Sequence record: PZ026127.1 | DNA: 64,000 bases | Source of the DNA: a phage | Strand: one strand, 5' to 3' | Shown here: positions 5,435 to 16,413 of the stretch, piece by piece | Layout: each line of letters starts with the position of its first letter | Position numbering within the stretch: position 1 is the first letter of the stretch | Notes under the pieces: model-generated | Told to the model about the DNA's origin: nothing | The model's input: only the letters and a program-made list of their open reading frames with translations | Databases searched by the model: none | Made by a program: the position numbers and the translations under genes

Positions 5435-5710
5435 ATGACTAAAATTGAAATCGTTTCCGAAATTGCCACTATTGTTTCCATTTTGATTAAAACGGATTGT
5501 GAAGACATCATGCAACGTCGTGATGAGTTTATTGCCTTTTTGAATGAGTTAGGTATTCGTAATGAACATGGAAAGGAACTTAATGGTTTGTCTTATAACA
5601 AATTATTTAAGTCTTTAACTGAAGATGAGCGTGAAACTCTTATTGAGCAATTTAATGAAGGGTATGAAGATATACACCGTTATTTAATGATGTATACCTC
5701 CAATTTCTAA
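5435..5710 (+). CDS. asiA: AsiA anti-sigma70 factor
   Basis: 91 aa (T4 AsiA 90 aa); VSILIK...FIAFLNE.G...LIEQFNEGYE...RYL.MYT matches remembered AsiA. Confidence 0.85.
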   Translation: MTKIEIVSEIATIVSILIKTDCEDIMQRRDEFIAFLNELGIRNEHGKELNGLSYNKLFKSLTEDERETLIEQFNEGYEDIHRYLMMYTSNF

Positions 5711-6360
5711 CGTGTTCGACCTAATGTCCTCCCGGCTTGACCACACATAGACGAAAGTCTAGGAAATCCTAAATCCGGTTTGATATCATACCAGTACAAC
5801 GATATCGAGCCGGCGTAGACGTTATCCAAATTAAAAAACGGGCATGAAAACATATACGTGAATTGTGTTTTCTTCTTTGTAGGGAGAAACACTGATTCAG
5901 TACTTGATTCAAAATAGTTCCCGTTAACTCCCGCCATATATTCTACTGACGTTTTGTCAATTGGAAACCCTCCCGTGTTTTTTGCGTCTACCGTTTCCGG
6001 TAATTTACCCTCGTAAGCCACCATATCCACAAAATAATTCATGTTGGTTGGTCTAAAAGAATATATTGCTGTGAAGTCTGCGCCTGAAGAAGAATGCACT
6101 ATTCGGAGCTGCTCGATAGCCGCAATTTTAAATCTATTGTCCTGGTCTTGTCTAATCATTTCAGTATAAGAGGCATAAGTTGTCTCTTTGTAAAAGTTTA
6201 GAATATACTCGCCTTTATACCAAACCAATGCCATAAAGAACAATAATATTACGACTAGGACCCGGGAAAAAACAACTTTCCCGGAAGAAGTATCTTTAAA
6301 AATTCTATCAAGAAGTCCAAAAAGTAGGTCTGATAATGATATTCCTACTTTTGGTTCCAT
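5707..6360 (-). CDS. t: holin T
   Basis: 217 aa (T4 T 218 aa); LSDLLFGLLDRIFKD..GKV..SRV.VVILLFFMA.VWY and C-terminal SMCGQAGRTLGR match T4 holin; late promoter and RBS upstream. Confidence 0.9.
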   Translation of the reverse strand: MEPKVGISLSDLLFGLLDRIFKDTSSGKVVFSRVLVVILLFFMALVWYKGEYILNFYKETTYASYTEMIRQDQDNRFKIAAIEQLRIVHSSSGADFTAIYSFRPTNMNYFVDMVAYEGKLPETVDAKNTGGFPIDKTSVEYMAGVNGNYFESSTESVFLPTKKKTQFTYMFSCPFFNLDNVYAGSISLYWYDIKPDLGFPRLSSMCGQAGRTLGRTR

Positions 6361-6378: not shown

Positions 6379-6386
6379 TATTTATA
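6379..6386 (-). promoter_or_regulatory. late promoter of holin t
   Basis: TATAAATA on minus strand about 20 nt upstream of t start. Confidence 0.6.
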
Positions 6387-6391
6387 AATTC

Positions 6392-7189
6392 TTAACTAAG
6401 CCAAGGGCCGTAAATCGTACCGGTCGCGCCCCATGCAGGAGCAGAAACGGCAACAGCAGCTCCAGAACCGCCCGCTGCCCCAACTTTAAGAACTTTACCA
6501 CCATCATTCCATGCGTTCTGGCCTGCGGCGCCAGCATCACCGCCATGACCTGAGTGGGCGTTACCATAATTGTATCCACCGCCAGGGCTTTCATAAGAAG
6601 CACCACCACCGGAGTATCCACCACCGCCACCAGGACCAAATGGACGTCCACCACCACCACCGATATCTTGCCAGTTAGCACCTGAGTGAGGACGATACGC
6701 AATGCCACCACCGCCACCACCACCGCCACAGATAACCCCATAGTTCCAAATACGTAGTCTATGACCTATATGGTTGACTATACAATCACCGCCCCATTGA
6801 CCGTTACCGTCGCCACCTGAATGGGTCCACCCACCGTGGCCGCCTCGGCCCCACATATGCACGCCTCCATGAATAGTCAAATTGACATATTCATTAGGTG
6901 TGTCGGCATTCATAAAGAACAATGGAACATTACGGTCGTAAGATACTATATCGCCTGTGATATTAAACACAATAGGTGCGCTGCCTGCTTCAAAACAGCG
7001 GTCGCGGAACCACTGGCCATTAAAATTATGGTTTGCTGTTATGGTGTGAATTACTTCAACAGACCGACCGTTCATATTACTCATCCAAAATGGGACACCC
7101 ATTCTTAATCTTACAGCGGCTCCTGCCATCCAAGGGTCTCCTGTCTGCGCCCTTGCAGAAGTTCCTATCCACGGTCCTGCTACTGCCAT
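6392..7189 (-). CDS. 38: long tail fibre tip adhesin gp38 (T2/T6-type, glycine-rich motifs)
   Basis: Poly-glycine motifs ([23 protein letters not shown]) separating variable segments in C-terminal half; ATG with GGAGG RBS; track ORF begins at upstream TTG (7201). Confidence 0.8.
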
Positions 7190-7220
7190 ATAAACCTCCA
7201 AGGGGCCGAAGCCCCTCTTA

Positions 7221-10200
7221 TTATTTTAACAATGATTTAATTAATGCTTTAAGTTCTTCAATCTCTGATTTCAATTCTGCTATTTCTGCAGTGTGCTCAT
7301 TGATTGCAGCTGTATTTAAACCAATTACACCGTTATAGTTCAAACGAAGTAAAGCTTCACCATCAGGGTCGCCTTCAACCAATTCAGGTAAAATAGCTTG
7401 AACTTCTTGAGCAATTAAACCAGCGTTAGGTTCCCATTTCTGATTACCTTCTTCATCCAGGCCACGTTTCTGCATATAAGTGTAGCCGTTAATTTTAGAA
7501 AGCTTCTCAGAAGCATTTTCAAATTTAACAAGGTCTTTTTTAACACGAATATCAGAACGAACATAAACGTCACGGACAAATGTTGAATAGGCATCGCTTT
7601 GTTGGATTAAATGACCAAAAGAAATAATAGCTCTTCCTGTTTCAGTCCACAAAGCACCAGTGGTATCCCAAAGACCTTCATGGATATGGTAAGAACTAGA
7701 CCATGAAGCAATATGCATACCATTGGCAACCATATTGATTCGGCCGTCACCACCATGCGATAATCCTGTGTCGTTATCACCAATAGCAATACTAGGAGAG
7801 CCTAATCCATTAACAGTACCAACACCAATTGCAGGAGTCTGGACTAAAGACGGGGCGTAAAATAAACCACTAGAGTGGAATTCGAAAATACCTGCAGGAT
7901 CGTTGCCATTTTCCTGGTTACCAACACGGATAATAGCTTGGGCCCATGTATTAGTAATACGACGCATACCGAAATCAACACCCGATACATATCCTTCATT
8001 AGTAATACCAGATTTTCCTTTGATAATCGGATAATAACTATCATTACCAACATTACCAAAATCTACAAACACCGGAGCTTCTTGCTTCCATTGGTTTCCC
8101 CAATCGCCAGCCTGGTGCGCAGCCCATTGTGTACCCTTTATATAAAGACGGTCCTTATTAAAATAAAAAGTATCCGACCCTTGAGGAGCTAAACCAATTT
8201 CCCCACTATTATGAATATTAAAACCTGAATTAGTTTGGAAACTATAAAACGATAAGGCATTATCAGCGCCGCCATTACCTACATACCAGTTATTAACGCC
8301 GGCTTTTTGCCCTTTAACATAACCGGATTCGGTTGCAGCACTGTTAATAACAATAGCATCCGAGTTTGCATTAAGAGTTAAGCGGCCGGTCATCGTGTCG
8401 CCTTCTTTAGAAACACGGCTATAGACAGCACCAAGAAGATTGGTTACATCACCGGCAGAAGTAAACGTTTTCCAGATATCAGACCAGATGTTACCATTTT
8501 TGCTAATAGTAGCTTCACCACCGCCAACCTGCACGTTATCCGGGAAATTAACTGTACCATCAGCATTAAATCTTGATGTATGACCTTGGGTCCCGTCTTC
8601 TTTGTAATGATGCAAAACAAAAGTCCCGGAATTAATTTCAGTACCTAAAGACCAAACAGCTTTTCCTTGTAAGAATTTCTGCTTAACAATAGGATAATAT
8701 TTACTTACCGCGTCATCATCAATTTCTTGGAAAACAGGAGCTGCTTGTGCATATTGAATATCGTAACCGCCTGCACCTGCACCATGTCCACCGAATTTAA
8801 TATAGCCGTTCGCAGTGATCGTATTGTATCTTGACTGTAAATCTGGAATACTTACTTTACCGGTATCTAAAGCCATACTAAATGGGCGAAGTGGTCCGAT
8901 ATCACCGGACATGCCTTCACCGAATGCAGTAGGAATAATATGAAGACTTCCTTCCGAACGTCTAAAAATGACCCCGTAATCGTTGTTCCAGATGCGGAGC
9001 CCGTTAACAGCATTTGTAGTAATTTCGCCTGCGGTATGGACCGCTCTATCAACCAAAATATCTTTTTTAACAACAAGATTTTCGTTAATAGTTTGTTGTC
9101 CATTTAATACGGCCTCAACGGTATTATCTTTATTGCGCTGGATATAATGCATCCAACTTACGGCATCAGATATTTCCATCACGTTTTTACGGGTGCCGCC
9201 TACTGTATTAAATGTGTTACCCCATACGGCAATAGACATATTATCAACAGAGCTCTGACCAGTGGTATAACCTTTAAAAAGCAAAACTGAGTTGTTATTT
9301 CGGCCATCAATATTAACCGAACCACCAACAACATCAATATTACCAGGAGTAACTAACAAACCACCAGCGGTGTTAACGTTTGTAGTACCCTTACCACGGA
9401 AATAGTGGTGATAATTACCGCCTTGATAATACCCTAAAAGAGTTTGTCCGTCGCCGTAAGCATTATTATCATGATAAGTGACAACTGTAGCCAAAGCATA
9501 GTTTTCCGACGGAGGTGTTGTCATAAGAACCCCGTCCGGAGAATAACCCATAACCATTTTTCTAAGGCTTTGTGTTTCCGTAGGTCCGTAAATGAAAGTT
9601 CTTGTTCCGTTGTTTACTGTATGGAAATATCCATCCTGATGCCATTTTAACCCGGTGTCATTATCACCAAGAGCAATTGAAGCAGTTCCTAATTCAGAAT
9701 ATCCTTTAGAGTTACCTGGGGTGCCTACAGAAATAGAATGACCGGCTTTCAATCCACCAGACCAAGTAAATGACCAAAGATAGGCGTCTAATCCATCTCC
9801 AGCATACCAGGTTATCCCGTCATTATCTTTAACTTCATGGAAAATGCTCGAACTAACTGCATTTCGCATAACACGGAGATGGTTAATAGCTGTTTCACTT
9901 TCTGCCAATGGGCTATTATCGGCCATTGAATAGATATCATAATCGCCTATCTTCTTCCCGTTTGTAATAACTTTATCGGTCAGAATTTGTGGAGATGAAA
10001 TAGATTTCCATGCTGATACTTCAGGTGAAGTAAATAGTCCACTGCCTGAAAATGCATAAGTGCTTTCGCTTCCTGCAGCATAATCTTGAACGCGAATATT
10101 AACTACTTGATTGGTCAAACCCGCATTGTTAGGAGAAAAGATAATACCACGCTCACGGTCATCGCCATCAAAGAAACGAAGATGAGAAGTTGAGGCGCTC

Positions 10201-10541
10201 TTAGAAATAAGTTCTCCACCTTCGGTCATTATCCGACCTGCAGCAATAATATCACGAGTTACGCGAGCAATCCCTGTTAAATTAAAATCACCTGTTTGGG
10301 TAAAGGTACCATTTAAGGTATAATCGCCGGTCTGGTTGTAATTTCCTTTATGAATAACGTTACCGTCAATATTACCACCTTTAGCAAAGCCAAGGTCGAT
10401 GATAGCGCCAGAGTCGTCTTTAGTAAAAAGTAATCGGTCCTTTAAGTTAATAGCCAGTTCGCCTTCAGCCAACTGGGCCGGTGTTGGACGTACACCGGCT
10501 ACTTTACTTCTTTTAAATTGGATTTGCTTTAAAGTAGCCAT
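7221..10541 (-). CDS. 37: long tail fibre distal subunit gp37 with C-terminal intramolecular chaperone (S74-like) domain
   Basis: 1106 aa; synteny 36-37-38; C-terminal ...[25 protein letters not shown]...[17 protein letters not shown]... resembles self-cleaving tail-fibre chaperone domains. Confidence 0.85.
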
Positions 10542-10549
10542 AATGCCTC

Positions 10550-11197
10550 TTAATAATAACCAAAATCTTGAATAGAATCTTTAATAACAATCTGGTCAAA
10601 ACGAGGAACGTGTCCTGCGTCAGAGGCCGGATTCAGCGAAATAAAGTTAGGAGCAGCAAGTACTCCGGTCATTGTTTGCATGTTAGTATTATTTATTTGG
10701 ACTTGTTTTGCGTTATCTACTAACGATAATCCTACTTGAGCTTTAGTAGGGGTGTTGCCTGGGCTGAATACACGACCTGATTCGTCATAAACTTGACGGA
10801 ATAATGAATCACCCATTACTGTGAGGCGTTTAGCACCCACTACTGTACTTGGGTCAAATATAACGAACGGTGTACCATCTTCCGTTTCATATCCAAAAGC
10901 ACCTTTAATACGGAAAGAAGCTGTGAACGGGGCTCCGCCAGTTCTTGCTCCTAATTTAATACCGTATCCATTGGTATCATTAAAGGTCAGCCCTTTTTCA
11001 AAATACACGTTATTCTTATAATTACCACCATCTGCTTTTGAAACAAAATCGTTATCAGTGGCTTGTGGTTTATTATATTCGGTGTAAACTTTATATGTTT
11101 TGTAAAGAAGGTCATTTGATACAGGCGTTAAGGGAAAATTACCTTGGTGCCATAATACCGAACCTCCTGCTGTAGAACCTAATTTTAAATCTGCCAT
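10550..11197 (-). CDS. 36: long tail fibre distal connector gp36
   Basis: 215 aa (T4 gp36 221 aa); synteny. Confidence 0.8.
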   Translation of the reverse strand: MADLKLGSTAGGSVLWHQGNFPLTPVSNDLLYKTYKVYTEYNKPQATDNDFVSKADGGNYKNNVYFEKGLTFNDTNGYGIKLGARTGGAPFTASFRIKGAFGYETEDGTPFVIFDPSTVVGAKRLTVMGDSLFRQVYDESGRVFSPGNTPTKAQVGLSLVDNAKQVQINNTNMQTMTGVLAAPNFISLNPASDAGHVPRFDQIVIKDSIQDFGYY

Positions 11198-11240: not shown

Positions 11241-11273
11241 TGTAAAAACGAAAAAGGAACCCGAAGGTTCCTT
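11241..11273 (-). terminator. intrinsic terminator after gene 35
   Basis: AAGGAACC-TTCG-GGTTCCTT (minus sense) followed by U-rich tract. Confidence 0.55.
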
Positions 11274-12393
11274 AATATTTTTCTCTAAATTCAGCGACCC
11301 AAACCTGACCAGGTTTAGTGCCTGTTTTATCATATAGCTGGGCTATGGTAGTACCCATATTTTTAGTTTCCGTACCAAAGTTCATACGAATACCGTTAAC
11401 ACCAAATTCAGCAGGTTTTGGCTGAGGTTCTGATTCAGATATCTCACCGAACATAACATTTCGAACTCCGCCTTGGCCAGCCGAAGCTGTTTTTCTGGCA
11501 TAAAGAGTAAAGTCTGTAGTACCTTCAGGAACCATTACTACCCGTTCAAATGTCATCCATGCACCAGCAGGAACGTTGGAAGGAACGTCCATATTAACTG
11601 TCCCAGTTAAAGCACCTGAGGCATTAAAAAATCTAACAGACATCTGAGAAGTCCCTACGTCTTTTAAAGCTTGGTCGCGCATTAATTGAAACTTAAGGTA
11701 AAAGAATTCACCTGGTTTCATATTATAATCTGTTAATGGGGTGGTAGGAGATTCGGTAGGAAATCGCTTAATTTCATCTCCATCATTGCTTAGATAAGTG
11801 CTTTCGTCTTCAACAATTCTGACAGGATATCCTGTACCACCGACATCACTGATATCATCAAATACCACTTCCAATGGAGTAGAAACATCTTCGACCAATA
11901 CCCCATCATTATAAAGCACATGTTCCATTACTATAGCATTCCTTCCTGAAACATAAAATGCCGAATAAGACGGCTCGAAGCGGTCTATTAGCCATTTAGA
12001 TGGAAATGCGGTACTTCCTGCTGCACGGAACCAATCGATAAGTTTTTGTGAAGCATTTAATCTACCAGAAGATACTAAACAAACTATTCTATTAGCCGGT
12101 ATAGAATTTATATACGTTATAAAAGCTTCAGAAATAACATCAAAATCTTTTGTAAAACTATAAGTTTTGTTAGCCACTATTTTGGGTTCAGCACTAACAT
12201 CAATTTCTATAAGGTTTAATCCATTTTGAAAATTCTGGGAACCGAAGTTCCCATCTTGAAATTTAACATATGCTTTTGTGGTAGACTTAGTACAACTACC
12301 CGCTATACTAAGTTTATACCTTACAGCATTGTTTTCAGATAATGTAGGAACCTGGACATATCCTTGTCCAAATTCTGCCATAAATCTTTCCAT
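11272..12393 (-). CDS. 35: long tail fibre hinge/knee protein gp35
   Basis: 373 aa (T4 gp35 372 aa); synteny; RBS AAGAGG. Confidence 0.8.
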   Translation of the reverse strand: MERFMAEFGQGYVQVPTLSENNAVRYKLSIAGSCTKSTTKAYVKFQDGNFGSQNFQNGLNLIEIDVSAEPKIVANKTYSFTKDFDVISEAFITYINSIPANRIVCLVSSGRLNASQKLIDWFRAAGSTAFPSKWLIDRFEPSYSAFYVSGRNAIVMEHVLYNDGVLVEDVSTPLEVVFDDISDVGGTGYPVRIVEDESTYLSNDGDEIKRFPTESPTTPLTDYNMKPGEFFYLKFQLMRDQALKDVGTSQMSVRFFNASGALTGTVNMDVPSNVPAGAWMTFERVVMVPEGTTDFTLYARKTASAGQGGVRNVMFGEISESEPQPKPAEFGVNGIRMNFGTETKNMGTTIAQLYDKTGTKPGQVWVAEFREKY

Positions 12394-12401
12394 AATACCT
12401 C

Positions 12402-15400
12402 TTATTCAATCCACTCAAACTTAACGGATTTAGTGACCGGGTCAGGAATAATACGCACGTTACCAATACGTAACCAATCAAGGATTGTAATGTTTTTCAT
12501 GGTAGCATTATCTGCAGGTAAAGCACCCACGTCATTGGCTGTAGGCGGGTTAGCTGCTGTATAAACCATAGCAAAATCCGTCCACTCATTTTTATTTTTC
12601 TGCCAAGTACGTGTATAACGAATAGTACCACCATTCAGTCCTGTAGGGTAACATATCCAATCTTGATAACATGAATCCAAGGTATTGCCAAACTGGGTTA
12701 ACGTACCAGGGTATTTAATTTCATTTTTATCTCTATCAAAGAAATCAAACCATTGGCCTCTAAGCTTTTCATCATTAGAGCCTAAAACTGGGGCTCCTTC
12801 AGTACCATCCTCATTCAGATAATGTATTTCAGGCGAATCAAAAGTTCCATCTAACGTCAACCAACCTGTAGCTTTCCAATCTCCATCCGTTACTGAAGGC
12901 GGCTTGGTCTGAATTGTATCAATAGTTATATGACGACGTAATATCATTCTATGATAACCCGGGAACTTACTATAAGTAGCCTCGTCACTGATATCAACAG
13001 ACCAGAAGCCAACTGTTTCTGCAGTAGGAGCTTGCTCGATAAGACTTGGCTTAGTACCAAATGCACGAACTGGAGCATTAACACGGAGAACACCTGTCAT
13101 TGTGTCGCCGGCCTGGTTAACAAAGTTCCGGTCTACAATTTCTACAGCGTTTTTCTCGGTCAGAACTTTATAAGCACCGCCACCATTAGCTACGATATTT
13201 CCTGCATCTAATGTTTTAAGAACCAAATTCTGAGAATTATCGCCTAAAGACAATGTAGCACCAGAAGATTCACCTGTGGTGGTTGCGATGGTTCTTCCAT
13301 TCAGGACAAAGTTATTTTTGGCCTGGACATCATTCCCAGCACTAAGGTTATTCAGAGCAGCCACATTACCTGTAGCGGTGTTCATAGTCAATACGTTAGT
13401 CGTATCACCAATGGTTAATGTAGTTCCTGTAGATGGAGCTGTTATTTTCCATTTATTGGTTCCGTTAACAACGTTCACTGTGCCAAAGGTAGAATTCGTA
13501 GCTGTAACATCCGTAAATGTAGCAGTACTAGAAGACACCAGAGGAGCTGCCAGGTTCAATTGTTTGGTCAGGGTTAAAGAACCATTAACCGTTTGGTCGA
13601 CGTCTCTACGAATGAACTGGAGTGAATCTAGGCCATCCAATTTCTCGGAGTTCACAGCCGTAGCATTTATAGGTAAAAAGTTCTGTAAAGTTTTATTCAT
13701 CTCGTAAGATGAAACCGCATAACCCGTTTTAGGGTAGTTAGCTGCGTTCAGAACAGTATCATCGTTCTCGTAAAGGCCTGTGCCTGAGTTAAATTTAACA
13801 CCGGAACCGGTAACTTTATTTCCTGAATGGGTTAAAGCACCTTCGGTTAGTTTAACAAATCCACGACGAAGTGCAGTAGCTTCCCAAGTGGTTTCGGTCT
13901 GTACTACATATTTTAAACCAGAAGGGCTTACAGCCAGAACTTTAGAAGTTCCTGCAGTTGTTTCGGTATTCGTTGCAACACGAATAATACCTTCAGAACT
14001 TTCAGTAGATTTTTTAGAATGCAATTTCAAAGGAGTGATGATAGTTTTATCATCGGTACCAACGTTGACTTCGGTCTGGGTTGCCAGGCGAGCAGTACCA
14101 CGTTGAGTCTCATTTGCTTCTCTAATATCTAGTGTATAATGGTTCCATAAGGTTCCTGATTCAACCAAACCACTGGCTGCTGAGACAGAAGTTCTAGCAG
14201 TATCATTAAATCTTGTTTTAACTTTCAACGGAGTTGAAATAACATTATCTAACGTACCAGCATCAAATTCTACCTGTGTTGCAATTCTAGCAATACCAGT
14301 CAATCCTTCCGTAGCTTTCCTATCATTTAACGTTTTAGGCGTTACTGCACGAGTATAATCTGTTCCAGTATCAGTTTCCTGTTGCGTAGCAATTTCAATT
14401 AACCCTGTACGAGTATCAAGAGCCACACGAGCATGTAATGTTTCAGGAGAAACAGCACTGTTGGCAAATCCACTTGCAGTTTGACCTGCGTTAACTTCAG
14501 ATTGGTTAGAAAGATATACCGTACCCTGTTGAACTTGGGTAGCTTTATACTGGTCAAGAGCTTTAGGAGAAATAACCAAATTGCCTACGTTCTTATTATA
14601 AACGTTAGTACCTACGGTGTCCCTAGCAGTCGCAGGAGCGGTTCCTACAGTAGAGGTATATGTTACAATACCTGAAAGACTTTCCGAACCCTGGCGCGCT
14701 TGTAGCTTCTTAGGAGTGATGATTGTAGTATCATCTGTACCCGTGTTAGTTTCAACTTGCGTAGCAATTTCAGCAACACCACGACGAGTTTCGGTTGCAG
14801 TACGTTCGTTTAATTTCTTAGGAGAAATAATCAAATCGTCCTGGAATGCGAAGGTTGTGTCCTGGTTCACCTGAGCAGTAGTAGCAATACGAGCAATACC
14901 ACGACGAGATTCAGTCGCCACACGATTAGCTAAAGTCTGCGGAGTAATTGCCAGTTCTTTTTCAGGATTATTTTCATGGTCAACGTTTGCTTGAGTCTGG
15001 GACGCAAGGGCAATAACACCTAAACGAGCACGAGTTAAATCATCTTTAGAATCCACACGTTCTATAGTAGGAACGTTCTGGGCAACAACCCAATATTTGC
15101 CACCTGTAGTGGTGTCTTCGATATAACTCAGTTCAATAACCGGAGTATAACTTATATTGCCATTAAAGGTCAGTACGTCATTCAATACCCATTCGGTTTC
15201 TGGTGGATATTCTGAACGTTTAGGGAATTGAAGCAACTGGACGGATGAAGCAATCTTATCTCCTACGGCAGCCTTAATATTTACTGTCTGAGCTTTACGG
15301 AGATAGTTCAGAGCAATCTTAACGACATCACCCTGGGCCACACCGGTAGGTAATGTGATATTAATTGTCTGGGGTGTCGTGTTATTAGGACCAAAAACAA

Positions 15401-16373
15401 TAACACTTTCGTTAGCCAAGAGTTCAACATCGTCACGAATTACACGTAAACGAGTTTGAAGGTCGCCGTCCCAAACATACCATAATTTTTCGTTAGAGTT
15501 ATAAACGAAGAATCCATCGCCTGAGGTACGGAATTCCATGCTATGCTGATCAGGTTTACCTAATGCAGACGAAGCATCAAACGTTTCAACGATTAAGTGG
15601 AACTTACTTCCTAAACCATCGATATCAACGGTTTTAATCATATCACCTTGGTTCGCATACTTAGGAAGAGTAAACTTAATTACTGCACCTGAAGTATAAC
15701 GACGGAGAACATTATCACCGGCTTGAGCTTGGAACTGAGCGGTGTTCGGTTCTACACGAATACCACGTTCTTCGTTACCAGCTTCCCAGAAATGCCAAAG
15801 ACGGTTAGCAAAGATAAGCATGTTATAAGAAAAAGGCTTCGTAATTAAGGTCTCAGTAAACTGATTACCAAAACGAACAATTTTCTGGTTACCGCCACCA
15901 GGAGCAGAACTAGACTGAACCTTTATTTCGTTATAACCAACACGTCCACCGATATCTTTAATTACAACGGTATCGCCGTCTGTAGGGTTAGGAGGCAAGG
16001 TAAATGTAGTAAAGCTAGCAGCGGAATCCACCGCAATATATTCACCAGAAGCCAGTTGGCGTGTAGGAGATGCTACGGTAATCCATTTAGGGTCCGTACG
16101 GGTAGCGGTCCAATAACCAGGTACAAAGGTTCCTGCCGGAGCATCGATATCACGTTGAGCAACCCAGATACGTTGGTCATGGATTACGGCGAACCCTTTC
16201 TTATATCCACGCGTCTCGTCGTACGCCTGGATGGTGTTCTCATCTATAAAGAATTCAACGTTGACGCCGTCGTCTAATACATTGTAATCGGCTTTGGCAA
16301 CATTGATAACTTTCTCGCCTGCAGCATCGAGTCCGGATGTAGCACGGAAGGCAGGTTTTAAAATATCGGCCAT
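12402..16373 (-). CDS. 34: long tail fibre proximal subunit gp34
   Basis: 1323 aa (T4 gp34 1289 aa); synteny; late promoter upstream. Confidence 0.85.
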   Translation of the reverse strand: MADILKPAFRATSGLDAAGEKVINVAKADYNVLDDGVNVEFFIDENTIQAYDETRGYKKGFAVIHDQRIWVAQRDIDAPAGTFVPGYWTATRTDPKWITVASPTRQLASGEYIAVDSAASFTTFTLPPNPTDGDTVVIKDIGGRVGYNEIKVQSSSAPGGGNQKIVRFGNQFTETLITKPFSYNMLIFANRLWHFWEAGNEERGIRVEPNTAQFQAQAGDNVLRRYTSGAVIKFTLPKYANQGDMIKTVDIDGLGSKFHLIVETFDASSALGKPDQHSMEFRTSGDGFFVYNSNEKLWYVWDGDLQTRLRVIRDDVELLANESVIVFGPNNTTPQTINITLPTGVAQGDVVKIALNYLRKAQTVNIKAAVGDKIASSVQLLQFPKRSEYPPETEWVLNDVLTFNGNISYTPVIELSYIEDTTTGGKYWVVAQNVPTIERVDSKDDLTRARLGVIALASQTQANVDHENNPEKELAITPQTLANRVATESRRGIARIATTAQVNQDTTFAFQDDLIISPKKLNERTATETRRGVAEIATQVETNTGTDDTTIITPKKLQARQGSESLSGIVTYTSTVGTAPATARDTVGTNVYNKNVGNLVISPKALDQYKATQVQQGTVYLSNQSEVNAGQTASGFANSAVSPETLHARVALDTRTGLIEIATQQETDTGTDYTRAVTPKTLNDRKATEGLTGIARIATQVEFDAGTLDNVISTPLKVKTRFNDTARTSVSAASGLVESGTLWNHYTLDIREANETQRGTARLATQTEVNVGTDDKTIITPLKLHSKKSTESSEGIIRVATNTETTAGTSKVLAVSPSGLKYVVQTETTWEATALRRGFVKLTEGALTHSGNKVTGSGVKFNSGTGLYENDDTVLNAANYPKTGYAVSSYEMNKTLQNFLPINATAVNSEKLDGLDSLQFIRRDVDQTVNGSLTLTKQLNLAAPLVSSSTATFTDVTATNSTFGTVNVVNGTNKWKITAPSTGTTLTIGDTTNVLTMNTATGNVAALNNLSAGNDVQAKNNFVLNGRTIATTTGESSGATLSLGDNSQNLVLKTLDAGNIVANGGGAYKVLTEKNAVEIVDRNFVNQAGDTMTGVLRVNAPVRAFGTKPSLIEQAPTAETVGFWSVDISDEATYSKFPGYHRMILRRHITIDTIQTKPPSVTDGDWKATGWLTLDGTFDSPEIHYLNEDGTEGAPVLGSNDEKLRGQWFDFFDRDKNEIKYPGTLTQFGNTLDSCYQDWICYPTGLNGGTIRYTRTWQKNKNEWTDFAMVYTAANPPTANDVGALPADNATMKNITILDWLRIGNVRIIPDPVTKSVKFEWIE

Positions 16374-16405: not shown

Positions 16406-16413
16406 TATTTATA
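16406..16413 (-). promoter_or_regulatory. late promoter of gene 34
   Basis: TATAAATA on minus strand upstream of gene 34. Confidence 0.6.

Follow-up and report, generated by a model that had tools for sequence, protein, structure and literature searches.

A T2/S16-type tail-fibre tip in a Dhakavirus, with a predicted self-trimming gp37 and a probably OmpA-directed gp38 adhesin

Genes 37 and 38 of a phage genome, sequence record PZ026127.1, were examined in a stretch of 64,000 nucleotides (the window), and the explanation that we favour, with a probability of roughly 0.8, is a long-tail-fibre tip of the T2/S16 type in which a self-trimming gp37 carries a gp38 adhesin directed at OmpA. The architecture taken separately, a chaperone-trimmed gp37 together with a gp38 adhesin, is very nearly certain. 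What was seen directly is the sequence with its domain matches and alignments; cleavage, stoichiometry and receptor are inferred from these. The source genome is a Dhakavirus, a relative of the T-even phages. Coordinates refer to positions in the whole window, and the fibre genes all lie on the minus strand. The span marked in a first-pass annotation of the sequence letters, 6392-10541, takes in genes 38 and 37 exactly, from the outer end of the one to that of the other, and gp38 has the 265 residues stated there. The parts of the module are as follows.

7221-10541 (-): gene 37, long tail fibre distal subunit precursor, 1106 residues, 119.5 kDa (open reading frame; phrog_1699, E = 0; Pfam Gp34_trimer and Peptidase_S74)
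7557-10541 (-): predicted mature gp37, residues 1-995, 107.2 kDa, with DVYVR as its last residues and predicted docking site of gp38 (alignment to the S16 site)
8880-9191 (-): gp34-like trimerisation segment in the gp37 shaft, residues 451-554 (PF21446, 1.1e-06; PDB 4UXE/5NXF, T4 gp34, about 1e-13)
7224-7556 (-): C-terminal intramolecular chaperone of gp37, residues 996-1106, 111 residues, 12.3 kDa, with a predicted coiled coil at its end (PF13884; 6F45_A)
6392-7189 (-): gene 38, tail-fibre tip adhesin, 265 residues, 27.0 kDa (PF21721 and PF05268; phrog_2056; PDB 6F45_D and 9V85)
7073-7189 (-): N-terminal attachment domain of gp38, residues 1-39, with Trp7, Trp20 and Trp35 (Gp38_N, 6.3e-19)
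6395-6841 (-): receptor-binding domain of gp38, residues 117-265, with hypervariable segments set between glycine-rich motifs (aligned with 9V85 and 6F45_D)
6704-6727 (-): G8 tract of gp38, residues 155-162, equivalent to the central polyglycine-II helix of S16, 151-GGGGGGGG-158 (alignment)

Architecture of the gp37-gp38 tip

The product of gene 38 matches Pfam family PF05268 (GP38) at 1.3e-62, with 212 bits against a cut-off of 25 and the whole model from 1 to 218 covered, as well as PF21721 (Gp38_N) at 6.3e-19 (68.1 bits, cut-off 25) and phrog_2056 at 4.7e-103. Residues 1-264 align with the S16 adhesin in crystal structure 6F45_D (4.9e-44), and residues 35-263 with the receptor-binding domain of PP01 gp38, 9V85 (1.6e-60), in alignments that are ungapped to lightly gapped. 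The predicted fold, a beta-helix plus a three-layer polyglycine-II sandwich, is supported by these matches. The gp38 proteins of T2 and T6 contain the same two Pfam domains, and the first-pass description of gp38 as an adhesin of the T2/T6/S16 type holds. Tryptophans 7, 20 and 35 occupy the same aligned positions as the three tryptophans of S16 gp38, which insert into gp37 (PMC6851490). We take gp38 to be a tip adhesin of the virion, with a predicted one monomer per gp37 trimer.

The poly-glycine tracts that had drawn attention to the C-terminal half are present as G8 (residues 155-162), G5 (177-181) and G5-YS-G3 (187-196). Glycine makes up 35% of residues 117-265, and in 100,000 shuffles of gp38 a run of at least eight arose in 0.17% of cases and three or more runs of at least five in 0.02%. 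The longest tract takes the place of the central helix described for S16 (PMC6851490). In the alignment with 15 further adhesins, the glycine tracts and RGG/GGD motifs correspond column for column, and variation is found in the intervening segments. The tracts are written in a mixture of GGT and GGC codons and account for the local rise in G+C content, which reaches 56% where gene 38 encodes its C-terminal half and is 40% in gene 37. A repeat search of the region, run on the plus strand, returned glycine-codon repeats (CCACCACC...) and no further repeat structure.

That gp38 might instead be an assembly chaperone of the T4 type, acting outside the virion and leaving the receptor-binding tip to gp37, is suggested by nothing more than the position of its gene after gene 37 and by the records of some relatives, where the protein is still called a "distal long tail fiber assembly catalyst". 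The first-pass annotation had judged this improbable, and direct comparison with T4 gp38 bears that judgement out: BLASTP found no similarity (E 6.9 over 7 residues), and T4 gp38, used as a Pfam control, matched no family, where the window protein matches the GP38 adhesin family at 1e-62. In addition, the gp37 of the window lacks the Collar and Phage_fiber tip domains of T4 gp37 and has Peptidase_S74 instead, a domain that T4 gp37, also run as a Pfam control, does not contain. We consider a T4-type chaperone to be out of the question for practical purposes.

For gp37, a C-terminal domain of the self-cleaving chaperone type, as the first reading of the sequence had proposed, is supported by PF13884 (Peptidase_S74) at residues 996-1055 of 1106 (1e-12; 48.5 bits, cut-off 22) and by alignment of residues 912-1106 with the S16 gp37 fragment in 6F45 (4.7e-46). 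The last 113 residues alone match 6F45_A at 6.2e-33 and, more weakly, the MYRF ICA domain (7DC3) and tail fibre 8JOV. A module of this type also ends more than 15 tail-fibre PHROGs, and T2, T6, PP01 and FB gp37 likewise score for Peptidase_S74.

The cleavage site of S16 gp37, DLNVS^SDRRIKK (PMC7917993), lines up with DVYVR^SDIRVKK in the window, and because of this alignment we predict a cut between Arg995 and Ser996 that would free 111 residues. The chaperone begins with the S-D-x-R-x-K pattern (S996-D-I-R-V-K1001), which aligns with SDRRIKK of S16 and DLRAK of MYRF, and the longer motif VY(V/I)RSDxRxK is found in gp37 of T2, T6, PP01, RB69, FL08, AV119, LHE83, KIT01, WG01, QL01 and FB. The serine at the first position of the domain and the lysine five residues on have the spacing expected of a Ser/Lys pair in this family, and we assign the role of nucleophile to Ser996 and that of its partner to Lys1001, by analogy with what is known of the endosialidases and MYRF; release of the chaperone was reportedly described for T2 by Drexler et al. 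in 1986. For S16, autoproteolytic release is on record (PMC7917993, which cites Dunne 2018), and it is said to occur in T-even-like phages generally, the vast majority of which have this arrangement (PMC9569957). Alternatively, the S74-like domain could be a non-cleaving relic retained as the C-terminus of gp37, a reading for which there is no specific argument. Both Ser996 and Lys1001 are present, residues 1001-1100 match their counterparts in KIT01, WG01, QL01, FB, PP01 and FL08, all six of them viable phages, at 98-100% identity, and an uncleaved chaperone would sit on the surface where gp38 docks (PMC7917993, PMC9569957). A relic is, on these grounds, very improbable.

Receptor class of the adhesin

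The first-pass annotation had regarded the sequence as silent on which receptor is bound; today that view is too pessimistic. We aligned gp38 (MAFFT) with 15 adhesins from annotated genomes and the S16 structure, and computed identity over residues 117-265. A tblastn search with gp38 covered residues 1-176 only, since the low-complexity filter masks the glycine-rich half, and a blastn search with the DNA of the C-terminal half was used instead. Identities of the receptor-binding domain to that of the window, with reported receptors, are listed here.

KIT01, WG01, QL01, FB: 97-98%
AV111: 93%; OmpA and lipopolysaccharide (LPS) (PMC10844046)
LHE83: 84%; OmpA (PMC10987938)
RB32: 81%; OmpA plus LPS (PMC3157838)
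FL08, AV119: 79%; OmpA "type 1" (PMC12032242)
RB69: 50%; OmpF, FhuA and LPS core (Trojet et al.; PMC3157838)
PP01: about 45%; OmpC (PMC12892980)
T6: 43%; Tsx (PMC3157838)
S16: 43%; OmpC (PMC7917993, referring to Marti et al. 2013)
T2: 41%; FadL/OmpF (PMC3157838)
FL12: 38%; OmpA "type 2" (PMC12032242)

Because the receptor-binding domain is 79-93% identical to those of five OmpA-dependent phages and 38-50% identical to those of RB69, PP01, T6, S16, T2 and FL12, the primary receptor is probably E. coli OmpA. Comparing the variable segments with those of gp38 proteins of known receptor, a check that the first-pass annotation had proposed, thus puts the type 1 OmpA adhesins closest. Average-linkage clustering at 35% distance groups the window protein with AV111, LHE83, RB32, FL08 and AV119, and leaves T6, T2, PP01, S16, RB69 and FL12 outside. 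The receptor assignments within the cluster derive from several kinds of experiment: deletion mutants showed that AV111 requires OmpA and LPS (PMC10844046); for LHE83, an ompA frameshift in a resistant mutant was followed up by knockout and complementation (PMC10987938); and the specificity of RB32 moved with a segment of gene 38 containing hypervariable segments (PMC3157838). FL12, with an OmpA adhesin of type 2, groups with the Tsx binder T6 in our alignment. Lutz et al. 2025, by contrast, write that type 1 is the closer to Tsx binders, which may be a slip of wording or an effect of their larger tree.

Five receptor loops, A to E, were defined in the PP01 structure (PMC12892980) and were mapped onto the window protein through the alignment.

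6815-6832 (-): predicted loop A, residues 120-125, GWTHSG; same as in AV111, KIT01 and FL08
6665-6697 (-): predicted loop B, residues 165-175; same as in AV111 and KIT01; holds Arg-x-His-Ser-Gly-Ala
6614-6625 (-): predicted loop C, residues 189-192; shorter than in PP01, uniform across the OmpA cluster
6557-6571 (-): predicted loop D, residues 207-211, NYGNA; same as in AV111; D207 in KIT01, WG01, QL01 and FB
6491-6511 (-): predicted loop E, residues 227-233, WNDGGKV; same as in KIT01; WQDGGKA in AV111

Loops A to D are thus exactly those of AV111, and loop E differs from its counterpart there at two residues. Lutz et al. model the Arg-x-His-Ser-Gly-Ala stretch as an OmpA contact in an in-silico prediction. 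Of the residues that this modelling places at the OmpA contact in type 1 adhesins, gp38 has R166, H168-S-G-A, R182 and D219 (in GGDAG). A valine of the modelled contact is replaced by P167, as it is in AV111 and RB32, and the modelled C-terminal arginine is absent, the protein ending in ...GPWLS, as AV111 does.

Several observations weigh against the favoured explanation, most of them against its receptor. The assignment of the Ser/Lys dyad in gp37 draws on knowledge of the family. In the literature consulted we found no receptor for KIT01, WG01, QL01 or FB, the nearest subgroup. Ten differences separate the receptor-binding domain from that of AV111, and A239 is seen in none of the 15 other sequences of the comparison. 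LHE83 still adsorbs at about 50% to BL21 lacking ompA (PMC10987938), so that OmpA may not be the sole receptor of this class of adhesin. A single substitution, Q206L, which separates RB68 from RB51, turns OmpF into OmpW specificity (bioRxiv 10.64898/2026.04.02.716166). It is this ease of retargeting, together with the residual adsorption of LHE83 and the state of receptor data for the nearest subgroup, that keeps us from putting OmpA more strongly than as probable.

Alternatively, a few loop substitutions could have retargeted the adhesin, with OmpC, Tsx, OmpF, LamB, LPS or O-antigen as its primary receptor. Single-residue receptor switches in gp38 are on record, the partial adsorption of LHE83 without OmpA points in this direction, and a gp38 of the RB49 type can use O-antigens as well as OmpA (PMC9569957). 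In the window, N207 and H215 stand where the Dhakavirus kin carry D and R, to which the unique A239 may be added. N207 and H215 are, however, the very residues of OmpA-dependent AV111, whose loops A to D are also shared, and identity to every reference outside the type 1 OmpA cluster falls to 38-50%. A primary receptor other than OmpA therefore seems unlikely.

With OmpA as the receptor, the tip would be assembled and used in five steps. Three gp37 chains would form the distal half-fibre, their last 111 residues acting, by homology, as a built-in Peptidase_S74 trimerisation chaperone. After trimerisation each chaperone would cut itself off at Arg995/Ser996, with Ser996 as nucleophile and Lys1001 as partner, to leave a 995-residue protein with a blunt DVYVR end. 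One gp38 monomer would then cap that end through a three-helix N-terminal domain, placing Trp7, Trp20 and Trp35 in three symmetry-related pockets, as in the S16 crystal. The glycine tracts of gp38 would fold as a polyglycine-II sandwich and present the five short loops to the cell surface. These loops would bind the extracellular loops of OmpA, with a dependence on LPS core that is likely by comparison with the closest tested adhesins, and reversible binding by several fibres would trigger deployment of the baseplate, as in other T-even phages.

Relation to known tips and mosaicism of gp37

The system to which this module belongs is thoroughly characterised, and the module adds a new allele to it. 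A self-cleaving chaperone on gp37 paired with a polyglycine adhesin gp38 is the arrangement of the majority of T-even-like phages, with two crystal structures and a growing literature on receptor prediction; to this the present comparison contributes a predicted site of cleavage, a map of the loops and OmpA as the predicted receptor. The receptor prediction extends to KIT01, WG01, QL01 and FB, and may be of modest use in composing cocktails of phages with different receptors.

The S16 tip (PDB 6F45; Dunne et al. 2018) has the same two-protein architecture, cleavage motif, tryptophan prongs and G8 helix, but its gp38 is 43% identical, its loops are unrelated, its chaperone has 113 residues rather than 111, and it binds OmpC of Salmonella. 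The best match among solved structures is PP01 (9V85; PMC12892980), whose beta-helix and polyglycine-II sandwich are predicted for the window gp38 too; it has identical gp37 residues 1001-1100 (100%) and is 85% identical over the N-terminal 40 residues of gp38, whereas its receptor-binding domain is 45-46% identical, its loops A to E are different and it binds OmpC of O157. The type 1 OmpA adhesins (AV111, LHE83, RB32/RB33, FL08 and AV119) belong to the same hypervariable-segment family, although they come partly from other genera (Mosigvirus, Tequatrovirus), differ from the window by 10-32 substitutions in the receptor-binding domain and, in FL08, AV119 and RB32, end in ...GPRV in place of ...GPWLS. 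T2 agrees with the window in the Pfam domains of gp37 and gp38 and in the RSDIRxK motif, but it uses FadL/OmpF, and its gp38 and gp37 are only 42% and 34% identical to those of the window. The first-pass label "T2-type" is sound as to domain architecture, while "S16/Ox2/RB32-like" describes the adhesin more closely. The endosialidases, T5 pb1 and the MYRF ICA domain have PF13884, the S-D-x-R-x-K start and a location at the C-terminus of a trimeric fibre in common with gp37; unlike the chaperones of endosialidase type, the one described here is set on a T-even shaft, and the new C-terminus would dock a separate adhesin rather than be the functional end. In T4, at the same locus, gp37 is homologous over residues 1-661 only (34%, 1e-97), its own tip (Collar and Phage_fiber) binds the receptor, and gp38 is an unrelated chaperone.

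KIT01, WG01, QL01 and vB_EcoM_FB share genus and synteny with the window phage, and differ from it in the N-terminal 32 residues of gp38 and in residues 1-600 of gp37, which are of other lineages. Overall gp38 is 94-95% identical between the window and these four; among all five the range is 94-100%, with LHE83 apart at about 78%. By contrast, gp37 ranges from 49 to 91% amino-acid identity among Dhakaviruses, and from 58 to 91% between the window and the four phages with the same adhesin, FB being the closest at 91%. Taken in bins of 50 residues, the window gp37 shows 96-100% identity to FB from residue 601 to 1106, with a single bin at 90%, while residues 1-450 are nearest to KIT01 and LHE83; QL01 gp37 is 24-76% identical over most of the shaft. 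The first 50 residues and the last 150 or so, comprising tip and chaperone, are kept in all close relatives. Between WG01 and QL01 the receptor-binding domain of gp38 does not differ at all, yet their gp37 proteins are just 58% identical.

Smaller patches occur at the junction of the two genes. The start of gene 38, about 100 nucleotides (7090-7189, minus strand; residues 1-32), is a micro-mosaic patch, of which the first 55 or so nucleotides match PP01 and not the Dhakavirus relatives and the next 45 or so are unique; A22 and V26 occur in no other adhesin compared. Beyond this patch gp38 matches FB and WG01. At the end of gene 37 the last 150 or so nucleotides are identical to KIT01, and FB is three bases off with an identical tip protein.

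This pattern qualifies the proposal, made in the first reading, that the variable loops are the likely determinants of specificity. Among near relatives, with receptor-binding domains 97-98% identical, it is gp37 that varies. Within this clade, to judge from the alignments, the loops would set the receptor class, yet strains differ in gp37. The contrast of an invariant gp38 and a mosaic gp37 is the sole residual novelty of the module, partly published already, and suggests, as a small pointer, the fibre shaft as a determinant of host range.

The main determinant of host range in this clade might be the mosaic shaft of gp37, or gp37 and gp38 together, with gp38 a near-constant OmpA anchor; such a role would complement an OmpA-directed tip and does not exclude it. 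The WG01-QL01 pair, with its single receptor-binding domain on two dissimilar fibres, is what one would expect, as is the patchwork of the window gp37, FB-like over residues 600-1106 and like KIT01 and LHE83 over 1-450. According to the summaries of Chen et al. 2017 given in reviews (PMC13517834, PMC11938639), segments of QL01 gene 37 placed in WG01 broadened its host range, and k-mers predictive of porin use lie in Gp37 as well as Gp38 (bioRxiv 10.64898/2026.04.02.716166). Against this, Pfam and PHROG recognise no binding domain in the variable shaft, the mosaicism could simply reflect recombination or antigenic drift, and in T6-like phages swaps of gp38 alone switch the receptor fully (same preprint, bioRxiv 10.64898/2026.04.02.716166). 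We regard a dominant role of the shaft as possible, if on balance doubtful. More speculative is a specific version in which OmpA is a fixed anchor, gp37 residues from about 450 to 950 form the host-range variable through lateral contact with polysaccharide or LPS, and the window phage is a fresh recombinant; it would then combine an FB-like distal shaft with a proximal shaft like that of KIT01 and LHE83 and its own N-terminal patch in gp38.

Locus and transcription signals

The genes lie in the T-even order 34-35-36-37-38-t, a complete long-tail-fibre cluster on the minus strand in which all six products match their PHROG families (E = 2e-57 to 0). Gene 38 sits between gene 37 and the holin gene t with a gap of 31 nucleotides on each side, and the same 37-38-t layout is found in KIT01, WG01, QL01, FB, LHE83, PP01, RB69, T2, T6 and FL12. 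The neighbouring genes and the sequence signals discussed below are these.

12402-16373 (-): gene 34 (open reading frame and PHROG match)
11272-12393 (-): gene 35 (open reading frame and PHROG match)
10550-11197 (-): gene 36 (open reading frame and PHROG match)
5707-6360 (-): holin gene t (open reading frame and PHROG match)
7200-7217 (-): hairpin GGGGC-UUCG-GCCCC, core 7202-7215, between genes 37 and 38 (sequence)
7195-7199 (-): ribosome-binding site GGAGG of gene 38, directly 3' of the hairpin (sequence)
6379-6386 (-): TATAAATA, T4 late-promoter core, 19 nucleotides upstream of t, at the downstream boundary of the module (exact match)
16406-16413 (-): TATAAATA, 33 nucleotides upstream of gene 34 (exact match)

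Two Dhakaviruses, WG01 and PSD9, share about 97.6% identity with the backbone of the window, and the best identity of the fibre region is 90.8%, to phage vB_EcoM_FB. The exact sequences of gp37 and gp38 were absent from a collection of 15 billion proteins.

Gene 38 starts with the ATG at 7189, with GGAGG 5 nucleotides upstream, and its homologues all begin with MAV. The TTG at 7201 that heads the frame in the list of open reading frames lies inside the intergenic hairpin and was rejected as a start. The hairpin has a folding energy of -14.1 kcal/mol and a z score of merely -1.66. It is conserved in KIT01, PP01, RB69 and FL08; in AV119 one base is missing immediately 3' of the hairpin, and in WG01, QL01 and FB the loop is UUCA. 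A role as terminator is not supported, as the hairpin has no T-run and a z score of that size; it looks like an element of mRNA stability or translational coupling instead.

The late-promoter core TATAAATA does not occur before genes 35-38. Across the window it is found 9 times against 7.1 expected, which is not above chance, and position alone makes the two copies listed suggestive. Their placement suggests that genes 34-38 form one late transcript and that t has its own promoter.

Open reading frames of 95-119 residues overlap gene 38 in other frames, at 6382-6741 (-), 6821-7108 (+) and 7033-7338 (+). These are by-products of the GC-rich stretch of glycine codons, with translations rich in Val, Ala and Pro, and are not genes. 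In gp35 (11272-12393, minus strand), residues 57-130 match the Pfam ILEI/FAM3 model at 28.4 bits, barely over the cut-off of 27; T4 gp35 likewise matches it, at 35.9 bits, which makes the similarity a general property of gp35 and not a peculiarity of the window phage.

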